This document shows, piece by piece, positions 885 through 6,577 of a DNA stretch of 64,000 nt. Position numbers and translations under genes: made by a program. Below the pieces are notes generated by a model, which ran no database searches, was not told where the DNA came from, and saw only the letters and a program-made list of their open reading frames with translations. The number at the start of each line of letters is the position of its first letter. Position 1 is the stretch's first letter. Origin of the DNA: a virus (taxonomy: Duplodnaviria > Caudoviricetes); IMG/VR virus record IMGVR_UViG_3300035180_001680; one strand, given 5' to 3'.

Positions 885-1679
885 ATGACCTATCTATTCC
901 TAGCGATTCCTAACTTTTGTGGCAGTACACTACTACATTCACTTCTAGAAACAGTACCACACATAACACCTTTAGTAAGTCCTGAGGAATTTAATGGTAA
1001 AAAGGATTTTGTTGAAGGAAATATCTGTGCACCAGGAGGTTATGTTAAATTAAACGGACCTCATTCAATTGAAGCGAATATGGAACATGTGTATTCTGAT
1101 CCAGCTAACTATAACTGGCCTTGGATTAAATCACGCTGGGAAGAGAATTGGGGAAATACAAACCCATATGCCACTATTAAAATGCAAAAGACACCAGCTG
1201 ATATATTTAGAATTAAATCTATGTTACCTCACTTTAATGATTTAAAATGGATACTATCAGTTCGAAATCCTTACCACTACGTAGAATCTATCTTCCGTAA
1301 AGCTACATTTCAAATGGATCCTATTCGACAATTAGATCAAATTTGTTACCACGTAACACGTACACTTGAGGTGCAAAGAGATAATATCGCACTCTTAGGT
1401 GATACTGCTTATGTGATGACTTATGAGGATTTTATTGCTAGACCGGAATACCATCGAGATCAAATGGCTCTATGGCTCCCTGAACTAAAGTATATTGATT
1501 TCTCATCAGAACTTTGGATAAAAGGACAAAAAGTCAAAGAGCTCAAAAATGATGCAGATGATAAGTTTAAGCGATTTATAGAATACTATCCAGATATCGT
1601 TAGTAGAATTAATGAGTTCTTTGAACCTAAGAAAGAAATCATTGAATATTGGGGCTATCAGTTATTATCGCCTAATTAA
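885..1679 (+). CDS. sulfotransferase-family (P-loop) protein
   Basis: 5'-PSB-like FLAIPNFCGSTLL, 3'-PB-like LSVRNPYHYVES and YEDF motif. Confidence 0.7.
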   Translation: MTYLFLAIPNFCGSTLLHSLLETVPHITPLVSPEEFNGKKDFVEGNICAPGGYVKLNGPHSIEANMEHVYSDPANYNWPWIKSRWEENWGNTNPYATIKMQKTPADIFRIKSMLPHFNDLKWILSVRNPYHYVESIFRKATFQMDPIRQLDQICYHVTRTLEVQRDNIALLGDTAYVMTYEDFIARPEYHRDQMALWLPELKYIDFSSELWIKGQKVKELKNDADDKFKRFIEYYPDIVSRINEFFEPKKEIIEYWGYQLLSPN

Positions 1680-1736
1680 TGTAGAGAATATCAGATATAG
1701 TATGTAATAATTTCAATTAACACGATAGGACTAATT

Positions 1737-1886
1737 ATGGAAGATAATACAGATAGCACCACTGAAGAAGTAGTGAGTAAAAAAAGATGTAGTAAGAATG
1801 GCTTCTTTTTTAATCCTAGCGTTATAATTTTATGGTTTAGCTATTGGATTAGCCAGAAGATAGTTGCCATTGCAAAGCAATTTTAA
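1737..1886 (+). CDS. possible 49-aa small protein with hydrophobic C-terminal half
   Basis: AGGA upstream of ATG 1737; MEDNTDSTTEEVVSKKRCSKNGFFFNPSVIILWFSYWISQKIVAIAKQF; below the ORF-track cutoff. Confidence 0.35.
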   Translation: MEDNTDSTTEEVVSKKRCSKNGFFFNPSVIILWFSYWISQKIVAIAKQF

Positions 1887-1953
1887 AATTATTTTGCAAT
1901 GGTTGTAAACTTTCTTTTGGAAAGATACTGAGACGTAGTCTAAAGTTGGTCAA

Positions 1954-2178
1954 ATGTTTGGATGGTACATAAATACGAAAACAATGGAAAAGAAAAAATT
2001 TAGAAAAGATCAAGTTCCTTGTGAATGGATTTCTGTACACAGCCACAATGAAAGTAAAATGGTAAACTCAAGACGGTGGTACAATGATGGTGAACGAAAT
2101 TATTATATATTGTCGTCTGATTCAAGAGTGCATCAAATGTGTTTAGTGAAAGGAAGATTGAAACAGCGTAAACTTTAG
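1954..2178 (+). pseudogene. C-terminal DNA-binding repeat remnant of a homing endonuclease
   Basis: Two W-x-N-(D/N)-G-type repeats (GWYINTKTMEKKKFRKDQVPCEW; RRWYNDGERNYYIL...LVKGR) with no nuclease domain upstream. Confidence 0.45.
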
Positions 2179-2185
2179 TCATTAA

Positions 2186-2442
2186 GGGTTTTGCGGACGC
2201 GGCTATCGTATGCCGCCGCCTCCACCAGGTGAAAAATGGTATTATTATTTTTATGGGGGCGACAGGATTCGACGTGGAATTATATAGGACGACTAGCGCT
2301 CGGCAAAGCAGAAGCCGTTAGTATTGAGGAGACTCAATTAAAGAAGCAAAGCATATAAATGCAAATGATTCATTCTACGGGGAAACTCGTTTAGCGGCTT
2401 GACCGTTAATGGGGTGCGAAACGCCTTATTACACAACGTTTC
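2186..2442 (+). ncRNA. ssrA: circularly permuted (two-piece) tmRNA
   Basis: The acceptor piece (T arm GCGGC/GCCGC, CGCCTCC-A-CCA ending 2227) precedes a 27-nt spacer and then the coding piece starting GGGGGCG-ACAGGATTCGAC at 2255. The acceptor stem has G3-U70; the tag ORF is at 2361-2402 and a terminator follows. Outer ends are approximate. Confidence 0.9.
2361..2402 (+). CDS. tmRNA proteolysis tag ANDSFYGETRLAA
   Basis: ATAAAT context before resume codon GCA; AND start, LAA end, TGA stop. Confidence 0.88.
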   Translation, partial: ANDSFYGETRLAA

Positions 2443-2470
2443 AAAAAGGGGGACTTCGGTCCCCTTTTTC
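2443..2470 (+). terminator. intrinsic terminator after tmRNA
   Basis: AAAAAGGGGGAC-TTCG-GTCCCCTTTTT hairpin with U tract. Confidence 0.85.
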
Positions 2471-2475
2471 TTTTC

Positions 2476-2505
2476 TTGACTTCTTTTGAAATTATCCTGT
2501 ATAAT
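2476..2505 (+). promoter_or_regulatory. sigma70-like promoter for the clpP-primase unit
   Basis: TTGACT-18 nt-TATAAT. Confidence 0.65.
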
Positions 2506-2538
2506 GAATACTTAATAACCACTCAAGGAATAAATAAG

Positions 2539-3231
2539 ATGAAAAAAATTATAAATCATTCAAGTAGAAATTCCGAACAAGATTTTGATGACCTCCCTTT
2601 ACAAAGCCCACCCGCATTCACGTTATACAGTCATACCCATCAAGCAACCGAATATTGGTTTTACATTAGTTCAACAATTAGAGAGCCTAGCGAATACACA
2701 GACATGATTCACACAATTCGTCATGCGGGAGCTGATGATATGGTGTTTATTTGTTTAAATACTCCGGGTGGAAGATTGGATACAGGCATTCAAATTGTCA
2801 ATGCTTTACGTTCATCAGATGCAACCATCGTAGCAGTATTAGAAGCTGAAGCATCGTCTATGGGAGCAATTATATTTCTTGCAGCAGACCAACATATTGT
2901 TCATGAAAACTGTCGAATGATGTTCCACGATTTTTCAGGTGGTGGTTCTTCAGGTGCAAAAGGGAACGAACAATTCAAAGAACTGACTGCTGCTATCCAA
3001 CTGTACAACAATCTTCTAAAGAATGTCTGTGTTCCTTTTTTAACTCCTGATGAAGTTAATCAAATTATTAAAGGTGAAGATTTTTGGATGGATTCTGATC
3101 AAATCAACAAACGTCTAAAAAATATAGCTAAAGCAAAAGAACTCGCAGATGCTCCTAAACCACCGAAGGTTAAGAAAACCAAGACAGTTGTGGAGTCAAA
3201 AGAAGCAGTTCTAGAAGCTACTACGGTATAG
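2539..3231 (+). CDS. clpP: ClpP-like serine protease
   Basis: LNTPGG, catalytic Ser in ASSMGA, His in MMFHD, Asp in EDFWM. Start moved to ATG 2539 after AAGGA. Confidence 0.85.
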   Translation: MKKIINHSSRNSEQDFDDLPLQSPPAFTLYSHTHQATEYWFYISSTIREPSEYTDMIHTIRHAGADDMVFICLNTPGGRLDTGIQIVNALRSSDATIVAVLEAEASSMGAIIFLAADQHIVHENCRMMFHDFSGGGSSGAKGNEQFKELTAAIQLYNNLLKNVCVPFLTPDEVNQIIKGEDFWMDSDQINKRLKNIAKAKELADAPKPPKVKKTKTVVESKEAVLEATTV

Positions 3232-3246
3232 GAATAGTTCTTCTCT

Positions 3247-4254
3247 ATGAACAGTGTTGAGAGTATAGTTAGGCAATATATCCCATTGCCCAGTAAAACC
3301 TCACCGAAAGGTTGGTATACTCTTCGCTGTCCCGTATGTAATGACCACAAATATAAAAAGCGTGGTGGGTGGAAGTTTGAAGATGTAAAAACTTCATACC
3401 ACTGCTTTAATTGTTCCATAGCAGCTACTTATGATGAAGAGACTGGGTTTTTATCTGATGATATGATAAAAGTTTTAGATTCATTTGGAGTTCCAGAAGA
3501 CGTTATAACAAAACTAAAGTTTGAGTTGTTTAAAAGGAAAAAGTTACAAAAAACTTCATCACCAACCAAAACAACATTTCAAGCAATTAACACGATACCT
3601 CTTCCAAAACATTTCTATAGAGTTATACAAGATGAGGATGATGTGTGGAGCCAAATTGCACAGGAATATCTTCTTACTCGTGGAATAGATATTGATGATT
3701 ATAAGTTTTATTTGTCCAAAGGTGGAACAAAATTGGAAAATATGTGGAAACACAGATTAATTATTCCAATATACAAAGACGACAGATTAGTTTTTTGGCA
3801 AGGCAGAGATTTAACAGATTCAATGAAAACAAAATATTTAAGTTCTGAAAGTGTATCAAAAGGTTCGGTAATTTACGGATTTGATCATTTGTTTTCGAAC
3901 ACCGAACAACCGTTATTTGTAGTAGAAGGGTTTTTTGATGCATTTCATATAGAAGGAGTTGCAGTATTTGGTAATGAAATGTCTACACATCAACTATCAC
4001 TTATAAATGCTTCTCCAAGAAAAAAAGTTGTAATTCCTGACAGGAAAGGTGACGGTGGATTGTTAGCACTTCAGGGAATTCAACATGGTTGGGGTGTTTG
4101 TGTTCTTCCTTTCGATGATTGTAAAGATGTTAACGATGCAATCGTAAAATATGGAAAGTTATTTGTAATGAAGACGTTAATGGAAAATGTTGTATATGGG
4201 TTTGAAGCAGAACTACGTGTGAGTTTGTTATGCGAAAGAAGTAAAAGGAAATGA
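3247..4254 (+). CDS. DNA primase (gp61-like)
   Basis: Zn finger CPVC...HCFNC; TOPRIM motifs VVEGFFDA, IPDRKGDG and KDVND. Confidence 0.9.
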   Translation: MNSVESIVRQYIPLPSKTSPKGWYTLRCPVCNDHKYKKRGGWKFEDVKTSYHCFNCSIAATYDEETGFLSDDMIKVLDSFGVPEDVITKLKFELFKRKKLQKTSSPTKTTFQAINTIPLPKHFYRVIQDEDDVWSQIAQEYLLTRGIDIDDYKFYLSKGGTKLENMWKHRLIIPIYKDDRLVFWQGRDLTDSMKTKYLSSESVSKGSVIYGFDHLFSNTEQPLFVVEGFFDAFHIEGVAVFGNEMSTHQLSLINASPRKKVVIPDRKGDGGLLALQGIQHGWGVCVLPFDDCKDVNDAIVKYGKLFVMKTLMENVVYGFEAELRVSLLCERSKRK

Positions 4255-4690: not shown

Positions 4691-6577
4691 ATGGAAAAAA
4701 ATAAAACATATACCGAAAAAGATATTGTTGTACTCTCTGACAGAGAGCACGTAAGAATGAGATTACCAATCTATTTTGGTTCTATAGTTCCAACTACAGT
4801 TAGAATTCCAATTTTTGCAGAATCTCTCGTGTTAAGCGAATTTACCTTTATTCCTGCTGCATATAAGGCAGTTGGAGAAATTATAGATAATTGTATAGAT
4901 GAGTTTTCTCATTTGTTAATTAAAAATAAAGAATTGACTATCGTATCTGATACCAAAAACGGTTATTATAGTATAAAAGATAATGGGAGAGGTGTGCCAA
5001 TTGGAAAAATGGAAACTGGGCAACACACACCAGAAGTTGTGTTTGGGTCTTTGAGGTCTGGAAGAAATTTTAAGGATGAAAAAGTTACAGGAGTTATAGG
5101 ACAAAACGGGATTGGAGCCGCAGCGACAGCATATACTTCGACGTTATTTAAAATTGAAATCGTTCGTGATGGAAAAGAATATATTCAAGAATTTAGTAAT
5201 GGTGTTGAAATTATTCATCCCCCCACGATTAAAAAAACAAACAAACGAGAGACGGGAACAACGATTTCATTCAGTCTTGATCCAGAAGTGTATAAAGACG
5301 TCGAACTGCCTTCAGAGGTAATGCGAAATAGAGCGATTGAGGTGGCCTTCAATAATCCCAATACAACAGTTTTTTACAACAACGAAAAGTTTAATTTTAA
5401 AAATGGACTAGAGGATATTGTTAAGAAAATATCTAATGAATATTTCAGATTTGGGATAGAGGGATTTGAATTTTTTGTTATTCTGGATCAATATAAAGGA
5501 CAAGATGAACAAGTGTTTACTTGGGTTAATAGTTCTTTGTTGTATGATGGGGGAATGTGTAATACACAATTCGTAAATGCTTTTGTTGACGCAACAGTTG
5601 AACATTTACGAAAAGACGCAAAGAAGTTGGGTGCTGAAGTCACAAAGAATGACATTCGTCAAAATCTCCTGGTGTTAGGTTCTTTGAAAATTTCGGACCC
5701 AGTGTATGACAGTCAAAGCAAAACTCGTCTGATTGGACCAAATCTTCGTAAAGAATTGGACAATTTAATTTCAAGTGGGTGGTCTTTATTTTCAAAAAGA
5801 AATAAAGAGTGGTTATCTCTAGTTCTTGAGCGTGCCAATGAACGTCATCATACGAATGCGAACAAGAAAGCAAGCGAAGAATTTAAAAAGACGCTCAAGA
5901 AGAAAGTTCCAGGCTTGTTGGATGCTGTTGGACGTGAAAGAATGAAATGTAAATTGTTTATTACAGAAGGTCTATCAGCAGCGAGTAGTTTAGTGGAAGT
6001 GAGAGATCCTGGAACAATCGGAAGTTTTCCACTTGGTGGAAAGATTAACAACGTTTATGGTTCAACAGTTGCTCAAGTTTTACAAATGGGAAAATTGAAA
6101 GATTTGTTGGCTGCAATTGGATTGGTCCCAGGACAAAAAGTTTACAAACAAGAACTTCGATTTGGTAAAGGTGTTGTAATTGCGACTGACGCAGACCCGG
6201 ATGGTTCTGACATTATCACAACTCTCGTTTGTTTGTTTTATGAATTTTGGCCGGAGTTATTTGATCCAAAACAACCACCATATTTTTATAGATTGATTGC
6301 TCCTAACGTTTGTGCTGTTAAAGGAAACAAGCGAGTTCATTTTACAACTAAAAAAGATTACGAAAAACAAAGAGATAAGTATAAAGGTTGGACAATTAGT
6401 TACTTTAAAGGTTTAGGATCAATGGAAAAAGAAGATTGGGAGATGATAATAAACGATGAACGTTTTTATCTTCCAATTATAGGAGATTCAAATATGAAAG
6501 ATGTAATGAAATTATTATTCAGTGAAGATTCCCAAGCGAGAAAAGACTGGTTATCCACCAAAACAGAGGATATTTAA
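4691..6577 (+). CDS. type II DNA topoisomerase large subunit (gp39+gp60/GyrB-like)
   Basis: GHKL motifs EIIDNCIDE, DNGRGVP, GQNGIG; TOPRIM motifs TEGLSA, PLGGK, TDADPDG, YFKGLG. Confidence 0.95.
   Translation: MEKNKTYTEKDIVVLSDREHVRMRLPIYFGSIVPTTVRIPIFAESLVLSEFTFIPAAYKAVGEIIDNCIDEFSHLLIKNKELTIVSDTKNGYYSIKDNGRGVPIGKMETGQHTPEVVFGSLRSGRNFKDEKVTGVIGQNGIGAAATAYTSTLFKIEIVRDGKEYIQEFSNGVEIIHPPTIKKTNKRETGTTISFSLDPEVYKDVELPSEVMRNRAIEVAFNNPNTTVFYNNEKFNFKNGLEDIVKKISNEYFRFGIEGFEFFVILDQYKGQDEQVFTWVNSSLLYDGGMCNTQFVNAFVDATVEHLRKDAKKLGAEVTKNDIRQNLLVLGSLKISDPVYDSQSKTRLIGPNLRKELDNLISSGWSLFSKRNKEWLSLVLERANERHHTNANKKASEEFKKTLKKKVPGLLDAVGRERMKCKLFITEGLSAASSLVEVRDPGTIGSFPLGGKINNVYGSTVAQVLQMGKLKDLLAAIGLVPGQKVYKQELRFGKGVVIATDADPDGSDIITTLVCLFYEFWPELFDPKQPPYFYRLIAPNVCAVKGNKRVHFTTKKDYEKQRDKYKGWTISYFKGLGSMEKEDWEMIINDERFYLPIIGDSNMKDVMKLLFSEDSQARKDWLSTKTEDI

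Follow-up and report, generated by a model that had tools for sequence, protein, structure and literature searches.

A predicted two-piece tmRNA gene in a T4-like phage with signs of a nuclease-borne exchange of its tRNA-like domain

A permuted tmRNA gene and its surroundings

The 64,000-nt stretch of DNA analysed here, called the window in the following, is the minus strand of the 84,887-bp IMG/VR virus record IMGVR_UViG_3300035180_001680, which is estimated to be 25% complete and has a GC content of about 35%. As judged from its sequence, the segment 2164-2470 of the window is the ssrA gene of a T4-like phage, coding for a transfer-messenger RNA (tmRNA) in the circularly permuted two-piece form. 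An earlier note, made from the letters alone, had proposed such a gene at this place, and a search with the Rfam model RF04321 (tmRNA_permuted) bears this out: the model matches over its full length (model positions 1-213) at window positions 2164-2402 with 93.4 bits, compared with a gathering score of 47 (E = 9e-17 over the 64-kb window), and is the sole family above threshold in the 64 kb. The order of the parts is permuted, as the 3' half with its CCA end (2225-2227) lies upstream of the 5' half, which begins at 2255 after an AT-rich spacer of 27 nt, and these coordinates agree with those of the note. The acceptor stem, formed by GGGGGCG and CGCCTCC, is paired at 7/7 positions, contains the G3-U70 pair that confers alanine identity and is followed by a discriminator A at 2224. 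In the covariance model (CM) alignment, helix P2 is formed by 2165-2195 and 2273-2300, and the P2 pairing put forward in the note corresponds essentially to its segment UUUUGCG (2189-2195), which is complementary to CGUGGAA (2273-2279).

The coding piece contains, in this order, the D-region GGAUUCGAC, the P2 3' strand (2273-2300) and a hairpin (2301-2317), and beyond 2317 an additional hairpin, the tag frame and the 3' hairpins. The tag frame starts with an alanine resume codon, has a hydrophobic end in ...AA and closes with a stop codon; its reading, ANDSFYGETRLAA, is the tag that the note had given and is also the tag called by ARAGORN for the sibling gene on the related contig L003. The terminator was likewise recovered as a hairpin with a T-run, and a CCA was not seen downstream of it. 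A pairing between TTGAAAC (2158-2164) and GTTTCAA (2438-2444) was considered and dropped; the local hairpin 2418-2442 fits the beta-type model instead.

The T-arm is the element in which the gene departs from the norm. The T-loop motif GGUUCRANYCC is near-universal and almost invariant in tRNAs and bacterial tmRNAs. Of the canonical T-arm (a 5-bp stem, the G53-C61 pair and a 7-nt loop of the form UUCRANY), the window gene keeps the stem and differs in the loop, so that GCGGC-UAUCGUAU-GCCGC stands in place of the usual motif. Due to this non-canonical T-loop, ARAGORN is blind to the gene and called neither a tRNA nor a tmRNA gene in the window, in agreement with the remark in the note that standard pipelines often miss permuted genes; of the computational checks listed there, the Rfam two-piece model was thus positive and ARAGORN negative. 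The beta-type model RF01850 aligns with the window from end to end (2144-2471) and covers both 3' hairpins, with a score of 55.7 bits that stays below the cut-off of 84, which we attribute to the replacement of the tRNA-like domain described below. In the competition between models of the same clan RF01850 was the best older model, two lower overlapping matches of the window being unnamed in the output, and for RF01849, the alphaproteobacterial type, no match was listed for the window, L003 or the more distant relative L004.

Table 1. Features of the tmRNA locus, in window coordinates
Feature	Position	Strand	Basis
Promoter-like site TTGCCA-17 nt-AATTAT, presumed promoter of the original tmRNA gene	1864..1892	+	consensus scan, 9/12; presumed function
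Relic: initial 24 nt (P2 5' strand) of the original canonical acceptor piece	1901..1924	+	aligns with L003 3586-3609
Replacement cassette, 416 bp	1925..2340	+	replaces 191 bp of L003 (3610-3800); blastn
Truncated Seg-like GIY-YIG homing endonuclease gene, C-terminal 79 codons	1939..2178	+	homology to P0003
Acceptor piece: P2 5' strand, T-arm, acceptor 3' strand, discriminator A, CCA	2164..2227	+	RF04321 alignment
T-arm, stem GCGGC/GCCGC and 8-nt loop UAUCGUAU closed by C-G	2199..2216	+	sequence
Acceptor 3' strand CGCCTCC	2217-2223	+	sequence
AT-rich intervening segment, 27 nt	2228..2254	+	loop between acceptor strands in the Rfam alignment
Coding piece	2255..2470	+	RF04321 and RF01850 alignments
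Acceptor 5' strand GGGGGCG	2255-2261	+	sequence
Tag frame GCA...GCU, ANDSFYGETRLAA (2361-2399), stop TGA 2400-2402	2361..2402	+	sequence
Intrinsic terminator, 11-pair stem and T-run	2444..2469	+	matches beta_tmRNA terminal hairpin
Sigma-70-like promoter, strong	2476-2505	+	11/12 positions
ClpP-like protease gene, ATG 2539 to 3231	2539..3231	+	Pfam CLP_protease, 42.5 bits; phrog_1827, E = 1e-50

According to Pfam and PHROG, the neighbouring genes in the record are T4-like and code for both topoisomerase II subunits, a primase, a class I ribonucleotide reductase and a tail-fibre-like protein. The topoisomerase is only about 33-35% identical to that of the nearest isolate phages, which points to a phage lineage without cultured relatives, and the public sequencing runs that contain the stretch are sediment, microbial-mat and lake metagenomes. 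Relatives of the locus were found via the ClpP-like protein encoded downstream (2539-3231), which is identical to its counterpart in L003 (100%) and shares 66% and 64% of its residues with those of L004 and L005. All three contigs carry a permuted tmRNA gene just 5' of the ClpP-like gene, and together with the window and the contig of the nuclease P0003 introduced below, this order of the two genes is syntenic in five contigs. The neighbourhood of a tmRNA tag and a ClpP-like protease invites the idea that the two may form a tag-and-degrade pair. In L004 only, a 312-amino acid open reading frame (ORF) with repeated DUF723/treble-clef zinc-finger modules (2926-3864) lies between the tmRNA and ClpP-like genes; its C-terminus resembles a Vsr-like endonuclease by eye, and it is possibly another mobile nuclease at the same hotspot. 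An exact search of IMG/VR with the 20-mer covering the 5' acceptor strand and the D-region of the window gene returned only an unrelated high-GC standard tmRNA, L002.

Upstream of the tmRNA gene, the predicted start from the promoter-like site is at about 1899, just 5' of the relic, and the site lies within the block 1807-1924, whose counterpart in L003 is placed directly 5' of the L003 tmRNA gene. A 9-bp inverted repeat, CATTGCAAA ... TTTGCAATG (1868-1901), overlaps this presumed promoter and is also present in L003. A further indel polymorphism is located just 5' of the promoter, where 111 bp of the window (1696-1806) are absent from L003 and from the major allele of the metagenome run X2 (1695 joined to 1807, depth 168); a 49-codon ORF (1737-1886) begins inside this stretch. 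Farther 5', the segment 885-1679 codes for a member of the sulfotransferase family (Pfam Sulfotransfer_3, 35.9 bits), an uncommon kind of gene in a phage.

A mosaic gene and a truncated nuclease

Comparison with L003 by blastn shows that the window gene is a mosaic. The segment 1-1696 of the window is 93% identical to L003 1803-3492, the block 1807-1924 is 96% (95.8%) identical to L003 3492-3609, and the segment 2341-7227 is 98.7% identical to L003 3801-8690, whereas no similarity was found between window 1925-2340 and L003 3610-3800. Where the window has this 416-bp cassette, L003 carries a canonical beta-type tRNA-like domain with its T-arm in the GGTTCGACTCC region. The tmRNA genes of L003 and L004 have canonical T-loops, are called by ARAGORN with the tags ANDSFYGETRLAA and ...ANDSYYGETRLAA, respectively, and pass RF01850 with 120.2 and 138.3 bits (cut-off 84). 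The CM score of the window gene is lower than that of its L003 sibling, with 93 versus 124 bits. The Rfam tmRNA_permuted match in L003 begins at position 3586, the first letter of the stretch that aligns with the 24-nt relic in the window, and the sequence of the relic is unable to pair with the current P2 3' strand of the window gene. In addition, the outer pairs of P2 have been altered on both strands (AGCG/CGCU in the window versus GGUUG/CAACU in L003), which indicates that the new domain arrived as a self-consistent unit.

Taken together, these comparisons show, at the level of sequence, that the part of the gene from about 2341 onwards, with the tag half and the terminator, stems from a resident phage lineage, the relatives of which have a canonical beta-type tmRNA; the tag frame lies within this inherited part, where the identity to L003 resumes. 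They likewise show that the tRNA-like domain and P2 (2164-2340) arrived together with a free-standing Seg-like GIY-YIG nuclease gene, displacing the old domain. Among the compared data there is no close donor for the incoming domain, and the closest candidate, L046/L066, is 74% identical over 144 nt. The L046 contig also contains a group I intron (RF00028, 69 bits; 5544-5735) within a large tRNA cluster.

The nuclease gene is located directly 5' of the tmRNA gene and overlaps it, its stop codon overlapping the tmRNA start. What is left of it can be read from an internal ATG as an ORF of 74 codons (1954-2178), from which the GIY-YIG catalytic domain is absent. Searched alone, this 74-amino acid ORF had no match in Pfam or PHROG when the threshold was relaxed to E = 10, and it gave no useful tblastn match in isolate phages; a length-limited protein search returned only the ORF itself, and its peptide patterns found no relative in IMG/VR or the JGI metagenomes. 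When the query was lengthened by reading through the frame upstream of the ORF, which admitted longer proteins as candidates, we found P0003, a protein of 244 amino acids with an N-terminal GIY-YIG domain (PF01541, 28.8 bits, cut-off 22.6). The remnant corresponds to the C-terminal DNA-binding region of such enzymes; over 79 residues its identity to P0003 (residues 166-244) is 84%, and the P0003 contig (2,613 nt) continues from the nuclease gene over a 352-nt gap to a ClpP-like gene and a partial gene at the place where the window has the primase. The remnant also aligns with the C-terminal 70 residues of a SegE-like GIY-YIG and NUMOD3 protein in L012, which is encoded directly 5' of a permuted tmRNA gene, in the same place as the remnant in the window. 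Jackhmmer groups the remnant with the nucleases of L012, L031, L050 and L062, all of which have the nuclease gene 30-71 nt before the T-arm, and in T4-like isolate phages the related proteins carry the annotation of Seg-like homing endonucleases.

Several forms of the locus coexist in public metagenomes, as read by placing contigs on window positions 1500-2800. In run X2, which belongs to another study than the probable source, a cassette-free allele, in which 1924 is joined to 2345 by 196 other letters, is found at a depth of about 189 next to the window allele, which is represented by a 468-nt contig identical to 1907-2374 at a depth of 14.7. In run X3, positions 1936 and 1937 of the window allele are separated by 562 additional letters. 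The homology to P0003 starts at window position 1939, corresponding to residue 166, and 562 equals 495 nt, the length of codons 1-165 of a P0003-like protein, plus 67 nt. The X3 allele would therefore fit an intact nuclease gene, and the window allele would be its deletion derivative. The window allele was found in at least three runs from different studies, and L003, X2 and X3 together display a presence/absence polymorphism between close relatives, with co-conversion of flanking markers. A further contig of low depth (4.2) in X2 follows the window to 1936 and then continues into sequence resembling a canonical T-arm (GGGTTCGACTCCC...), which hints at another allele or a recombinant with the same junction.

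Non-canonical T-loops in phage tmRNA genes

The T-loop of the window is not confined to this gene. The exact 18-mer of its T-arm is present in six other viral tmRNA genes, two standard and four permuted, which include alpha-like and beta-like forms, and ARAGORN calls none of these six. One of the standard genes with the exact T-arm is the one-piece phage tmRNA gene in L008 (799-1698; near copy in L010), where an HNH_3 homing endonuclease gene begins 75 nt past the CCA end. With three stem pairs left free, the T-arm pattern has 61 matches on 58 IMG/VR contigs; 60/61 are perfectly complementary, the stems fall into eight covarying types, and each match is followed by NNNNTCC-A-CCA or -CTA. The same scan over one genome for each of 185,579 bacterial and archaeal species gave only two tmRNA-like matches, both on short contigs (4.6 and 7.2 kb) of metagenome-assembled genomes that may well be phage DNA. 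The UAUCGUAU loop is thus widespread in uncultured phages and nearly absent from bacterial genomes. For two of its carriers, L030 and L034, a blastn search of 50,697 isolate phage records returned nothing. Among 20 distinct permuted genes of this type, the acceptor stem is paired at 7/7 positions with G3-U70 in every one (20/20), and 12/20 have AN... tags ending in AA, such as ANDSAYALAA, ANDETWALAA and ANDAYFGEERLAA. Thus, as far as can be read from sequence, the variant loop appears to sit in genes whose other features suggest selection for tmRNA function, and the eight covarying T-stem types and intact acceptor stems suggest that the class itself is under selection. As ARAGORN is blind to this class, counts of phage tmRNA genes that are based on it will be too low. 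A subgroup of the UAUCGUAU type (L015, L042, L028, L035, L039 and others) ends in ACTA rather than ACCA; the tags of L015 and L042 are short and atypical (ANVVESWSK and ANVVKSRSK) and do not end in AA, and their function may differ. A second recurrent non-canonical T-loop, CGUGGUGU / AGUGGUGU, occurs in L005 (about 3655-3872, no ARAGORN call) and L092 (2257-2530).

A profile built from five tmRNA-adjacent nucleases (A3) identified 344 relatives in IMG/VR. Its best matches in L075-L081, L083, L092 and L104 all directly adjoin a permuted tmRNA gene, on the T-arm side, and Rfam confirmed 9/10 of these tmRNA genes at the gathering threshold, the L083 contig ending inside the gene. The nuclease gene of L082, also one of the top matches, adjoins tRNA genes instead, and in Caulobacter phage Cr30 a related nuclease is not beside a tmRNA gene. 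The sequence neighbourhoods suggest a Seg-like nuclease family that is specialised on phage tmRNA genes. Next to these nucleases, T-loops of canonical type are found in L075 (UUCGAAC) and L080 (UUCGACU), and non-canonical ones in L077 (UGCAAGU), L079, L081 and L076 (a 6-nt UUCGAA loop), L083 (GGCAGAG), L104 (GGCAGUA) and L092 (AGUGGUGU, as in L005). Non-canonical T-loops were counted in 6/8 of the tmRNA genes found through a nuclease, in at least five kinds, versus 2/70 in a control of phage permuted tmRNAs drawn by a pattern that ignores the T-arm (68/70 canonical); Fisher's test gives p = 3e-6, a value that is indicative only, since the sampled loci are not independent lineages. Among the control genes with enough upstream sequence, 0/57 have a nuclease of the tmRNA-associated family upstream. 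The loop UAUCGUAU is the commonest non-canonical form and occurs in both permuted and standard genes.

Proposed mechanism, alternatives and meaning

The GIY-YIG enzyme SegB of phage T4, which is encoded in a tRNA cluster, requires GGTTCRANTCC, that is the DNA of the T-psi-C stem-loop, and drives the inheritance of the flanking tRNA genes (PMC2330249). By analogy, the target of the nuclease described here is probably the T-psi-C stem-loop DNA of tmRNA genes that lack the cassette, in which case the odd T-loop of the incoming domain would be a cut-resistant allele travelling with the nuclease. On the sequence evidence, entry of the cassette displaced the old domain and left the 24-nt relic at 1901-1924, and a later 562-bp deletion removed the catalytic domain of the nuclease, resulting in the 74-codon ORF. 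If the RNA follows the established two-piece pathway, a single precursor would be transcribed from the old promoter (1864-1892, a weak match to the consensus) through the relic and the broken ORF. RNase P would cut before G2255 (2254/2255) and the 3' end would be trimmed to the CCA at 2227 (cut 2227/2228), so that the segment 2228-2254 is expected to be removed and an acceptor piece and a coding piece remain, which the acceptor stem and P2 would hold together. The RNA, which appears to tolerate the odd T-loop, would be charged with alanine via G3-U70 and would add ANDSFYGETRLAA to stalled nascent chains. By analogy with known tmRNAs, this may allow ribosome rescue with the tag of the phage itself. 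We consider this account, comprising the phage two-piece tmRNA gene, the nuclease-borne swap of the tRNA-like domain and the T-loop as a cut-resistant allele, to be probable. Its extension to the family as a whole, namely that Seg-like nucleases target the T-psi-C DNA of tmRNA genes, swap tRNA-like domains by homing and have driven at least six non-canonical T-loops that still support trans-translation, is put forward tentatively, as a possibility that we would not yet bet on.

Several observations weigh against this account. SmpB (PF01668) was not found in the 85-kb record, which is about 25% complete by estimate, and none of the public runs containing the stretch is an RNA run. Folded as a single strand, the segment 2160-2345 recovers the T-arm and the acceptor stem, and its z-score of -1.2 versus shuffled sequences is not significant. 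No promoter is present directly 5' of 2164, so that a leader of about 265 nt would stay on the acceptor piece or have to be removed from it. The T-loop is off a nearly invariant motif, and this copy of the gene may have lost its function. Moreover, most UAUCGUAU-type genes have no recognised adjacent nuclease, and two nuclease-adjacent genes, L075 and L080, have canonical T-loops; the idea that the loop confers immunity to cutting therefore draws on a statistical association, with the limit on its p value given above.

Of the other explanations, one takes up the possible loss of function and sees in the window gene a decaying chimera, which received a defective tRNA-like domain with the cassette and is kept as a non-working hitch-hiker or scar. 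The loop without GGUUCRANYCC, the rejection of the gene by ARAGORN, the CM score of 93 bits compared with 124 for the sibling, the long 5' leader, which contains the relic and the broken ORF, and the minority status of the allele in X2 (14.7 versus about 189) would all agree with decay. However, decay does not account well for a T-loop that recurs with covarying stems in about 58 viral contigs, for G3-U70 acceptor stems that are intact in 20/20 of these genes and AA-ending tags in 12/20, or for the integrity of all other elements of the window gene, including a P2 compensated on both strands, and the allele is present in at least three runs from different studies. We therefore regard it as unlikely. 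Less likely still, and in our view very improbable, is the origin suggested in the note, either direct capture of an already permuted ssrA gene, here with a rhizobial-like alphaproteobacterium as the donor, or permutation of a standard gene within the phage. The end of the tag in RLAA had pointed to rhizobia, and Rhizobium, Sinorhizobium and Agrobacterium phages are among the topoisomerase relatives (33-35% identity), but RLAA-type tags recur in other phage tmRNAs (L004, L034 and L061), the canonical genes of the relatives L003 and L004 pass the beta-type model RF01850 (120-138 bits), with any overlapping matches of the same clan being lower, and the best older model for the window is also of the beta type. 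The tRNA-like half came neither directly from a host nor by independent permutation but in a cassette tied to a phage homing endonuclease, and its T-loop type is essentially absent from the 185,579 bacterial and archaeal species genomes.

A different possibility is that the odd T-loop is an adaptation at the level of the RNA and unrelated to the nuclease, for example by evading a host nuclease or modification enzyme that reads the T-loop, or by fitting a phage partner. An identical 8-nt loop that very different phages share, in tmRNA genes of both the permuted and the standard kind and mostly without a recognised nuclease next to the gene, is what such an adaptation might look like. The genes that do adjoin a nuclease, on the other hand, show at least six different non-canonical loops and not one optimum, so that an escape from DNA recognition fits better than a single function of the RNA, and the precedent of SegB also points to T-psi-C DNA as the target. 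Adaptation of the RNA is, in our judgement, rather unlikely as the explanation, and it and immunity of the DNA to cutting are not mutually exclusive.

Two-piece tmRNAs are not new in phages as a class, since they have already been described in the OM43 phage Melnitz, in 53 cases among 18,146 isolate phage genomes and in many marine phage contigs (PMC9004378), and the tmRNA database paper of 2025, which explains the merged model RF04321, lists 79 phage sequences (PMC11915505). The window adds a lineage from sediment or microbial mat. With the tmRNAs of Melnitz, pelagimyophages and T4-like cyanophages (Buchholz et al. 2022, PMC9004378) it shares the permuted order, the excised spacer, the AN...AA tag, the T4-like myophage context and a pass with the same covariance model. 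In contrast to these phages from marine water, the window has no glutamine riboswitch match in Rfam, its tmRNA gene lies 5' of a ClpP-like gene and not of a late-transcription coactivator gene, the canonical form of its lineage is of the beta and not the alpha type, and its T-loop is non-canonical in a tRNA-like half that has been swapped in as a cassette. The betaproteobacterial two-piece tmRNA (RF01850; Sharkady and Williams 2004, cited in PMC9004378) has the same architecture and two 3' hairpins alike, whereas the window gene belongs to a virus and has a tag that exceeds the model consensus in length. In T4 SegB (PMC2330249), as here, a Seg-type GIY-YIG enzyme is encoded beside genes for tRNA-shaped RNAs, and flanking RNA genes are carried along; in the window, however, the nuclease is partnered with a tmRNA gene that its ORF overlaps, the enzyme is truncated and the co-transferred RNA domain has an altered T-loop. 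Finally, there are tmRNA genes in which the T-psi-C loop is interrupted by a group I intron that carries a homing endonuclease (PMC11915505). In these genes and in the window alike, mobile nuclease elements exploit the conserved T-loop region of ssrA, but the window has no Intron_gpI match, its nuclease gene is free-standing, and the RNA sequence would have been changed and not restored by splicing.

The new part is the replacement of a tRNA-like domain by a nuclease-borne one, together with a T-loop class that is restricted to viruses, and it is worth a modest follow-up. As cassette-free, intact-nuclease and truncated-nuclease stages appear to coexist, the locus offers a natural experiment on how homing endonucleases may rebuild an RNA gene. 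If the extension to the whole nuclease family is true, tmRNA function would not depend on the near-universal T-loop sequence, and an arms race with a selfish gene would have reshaped a structured RNA. The behaviour of the nuclease and of the variant domain would tell us how much of the 'universal' T-loop a tmRNA really needs.

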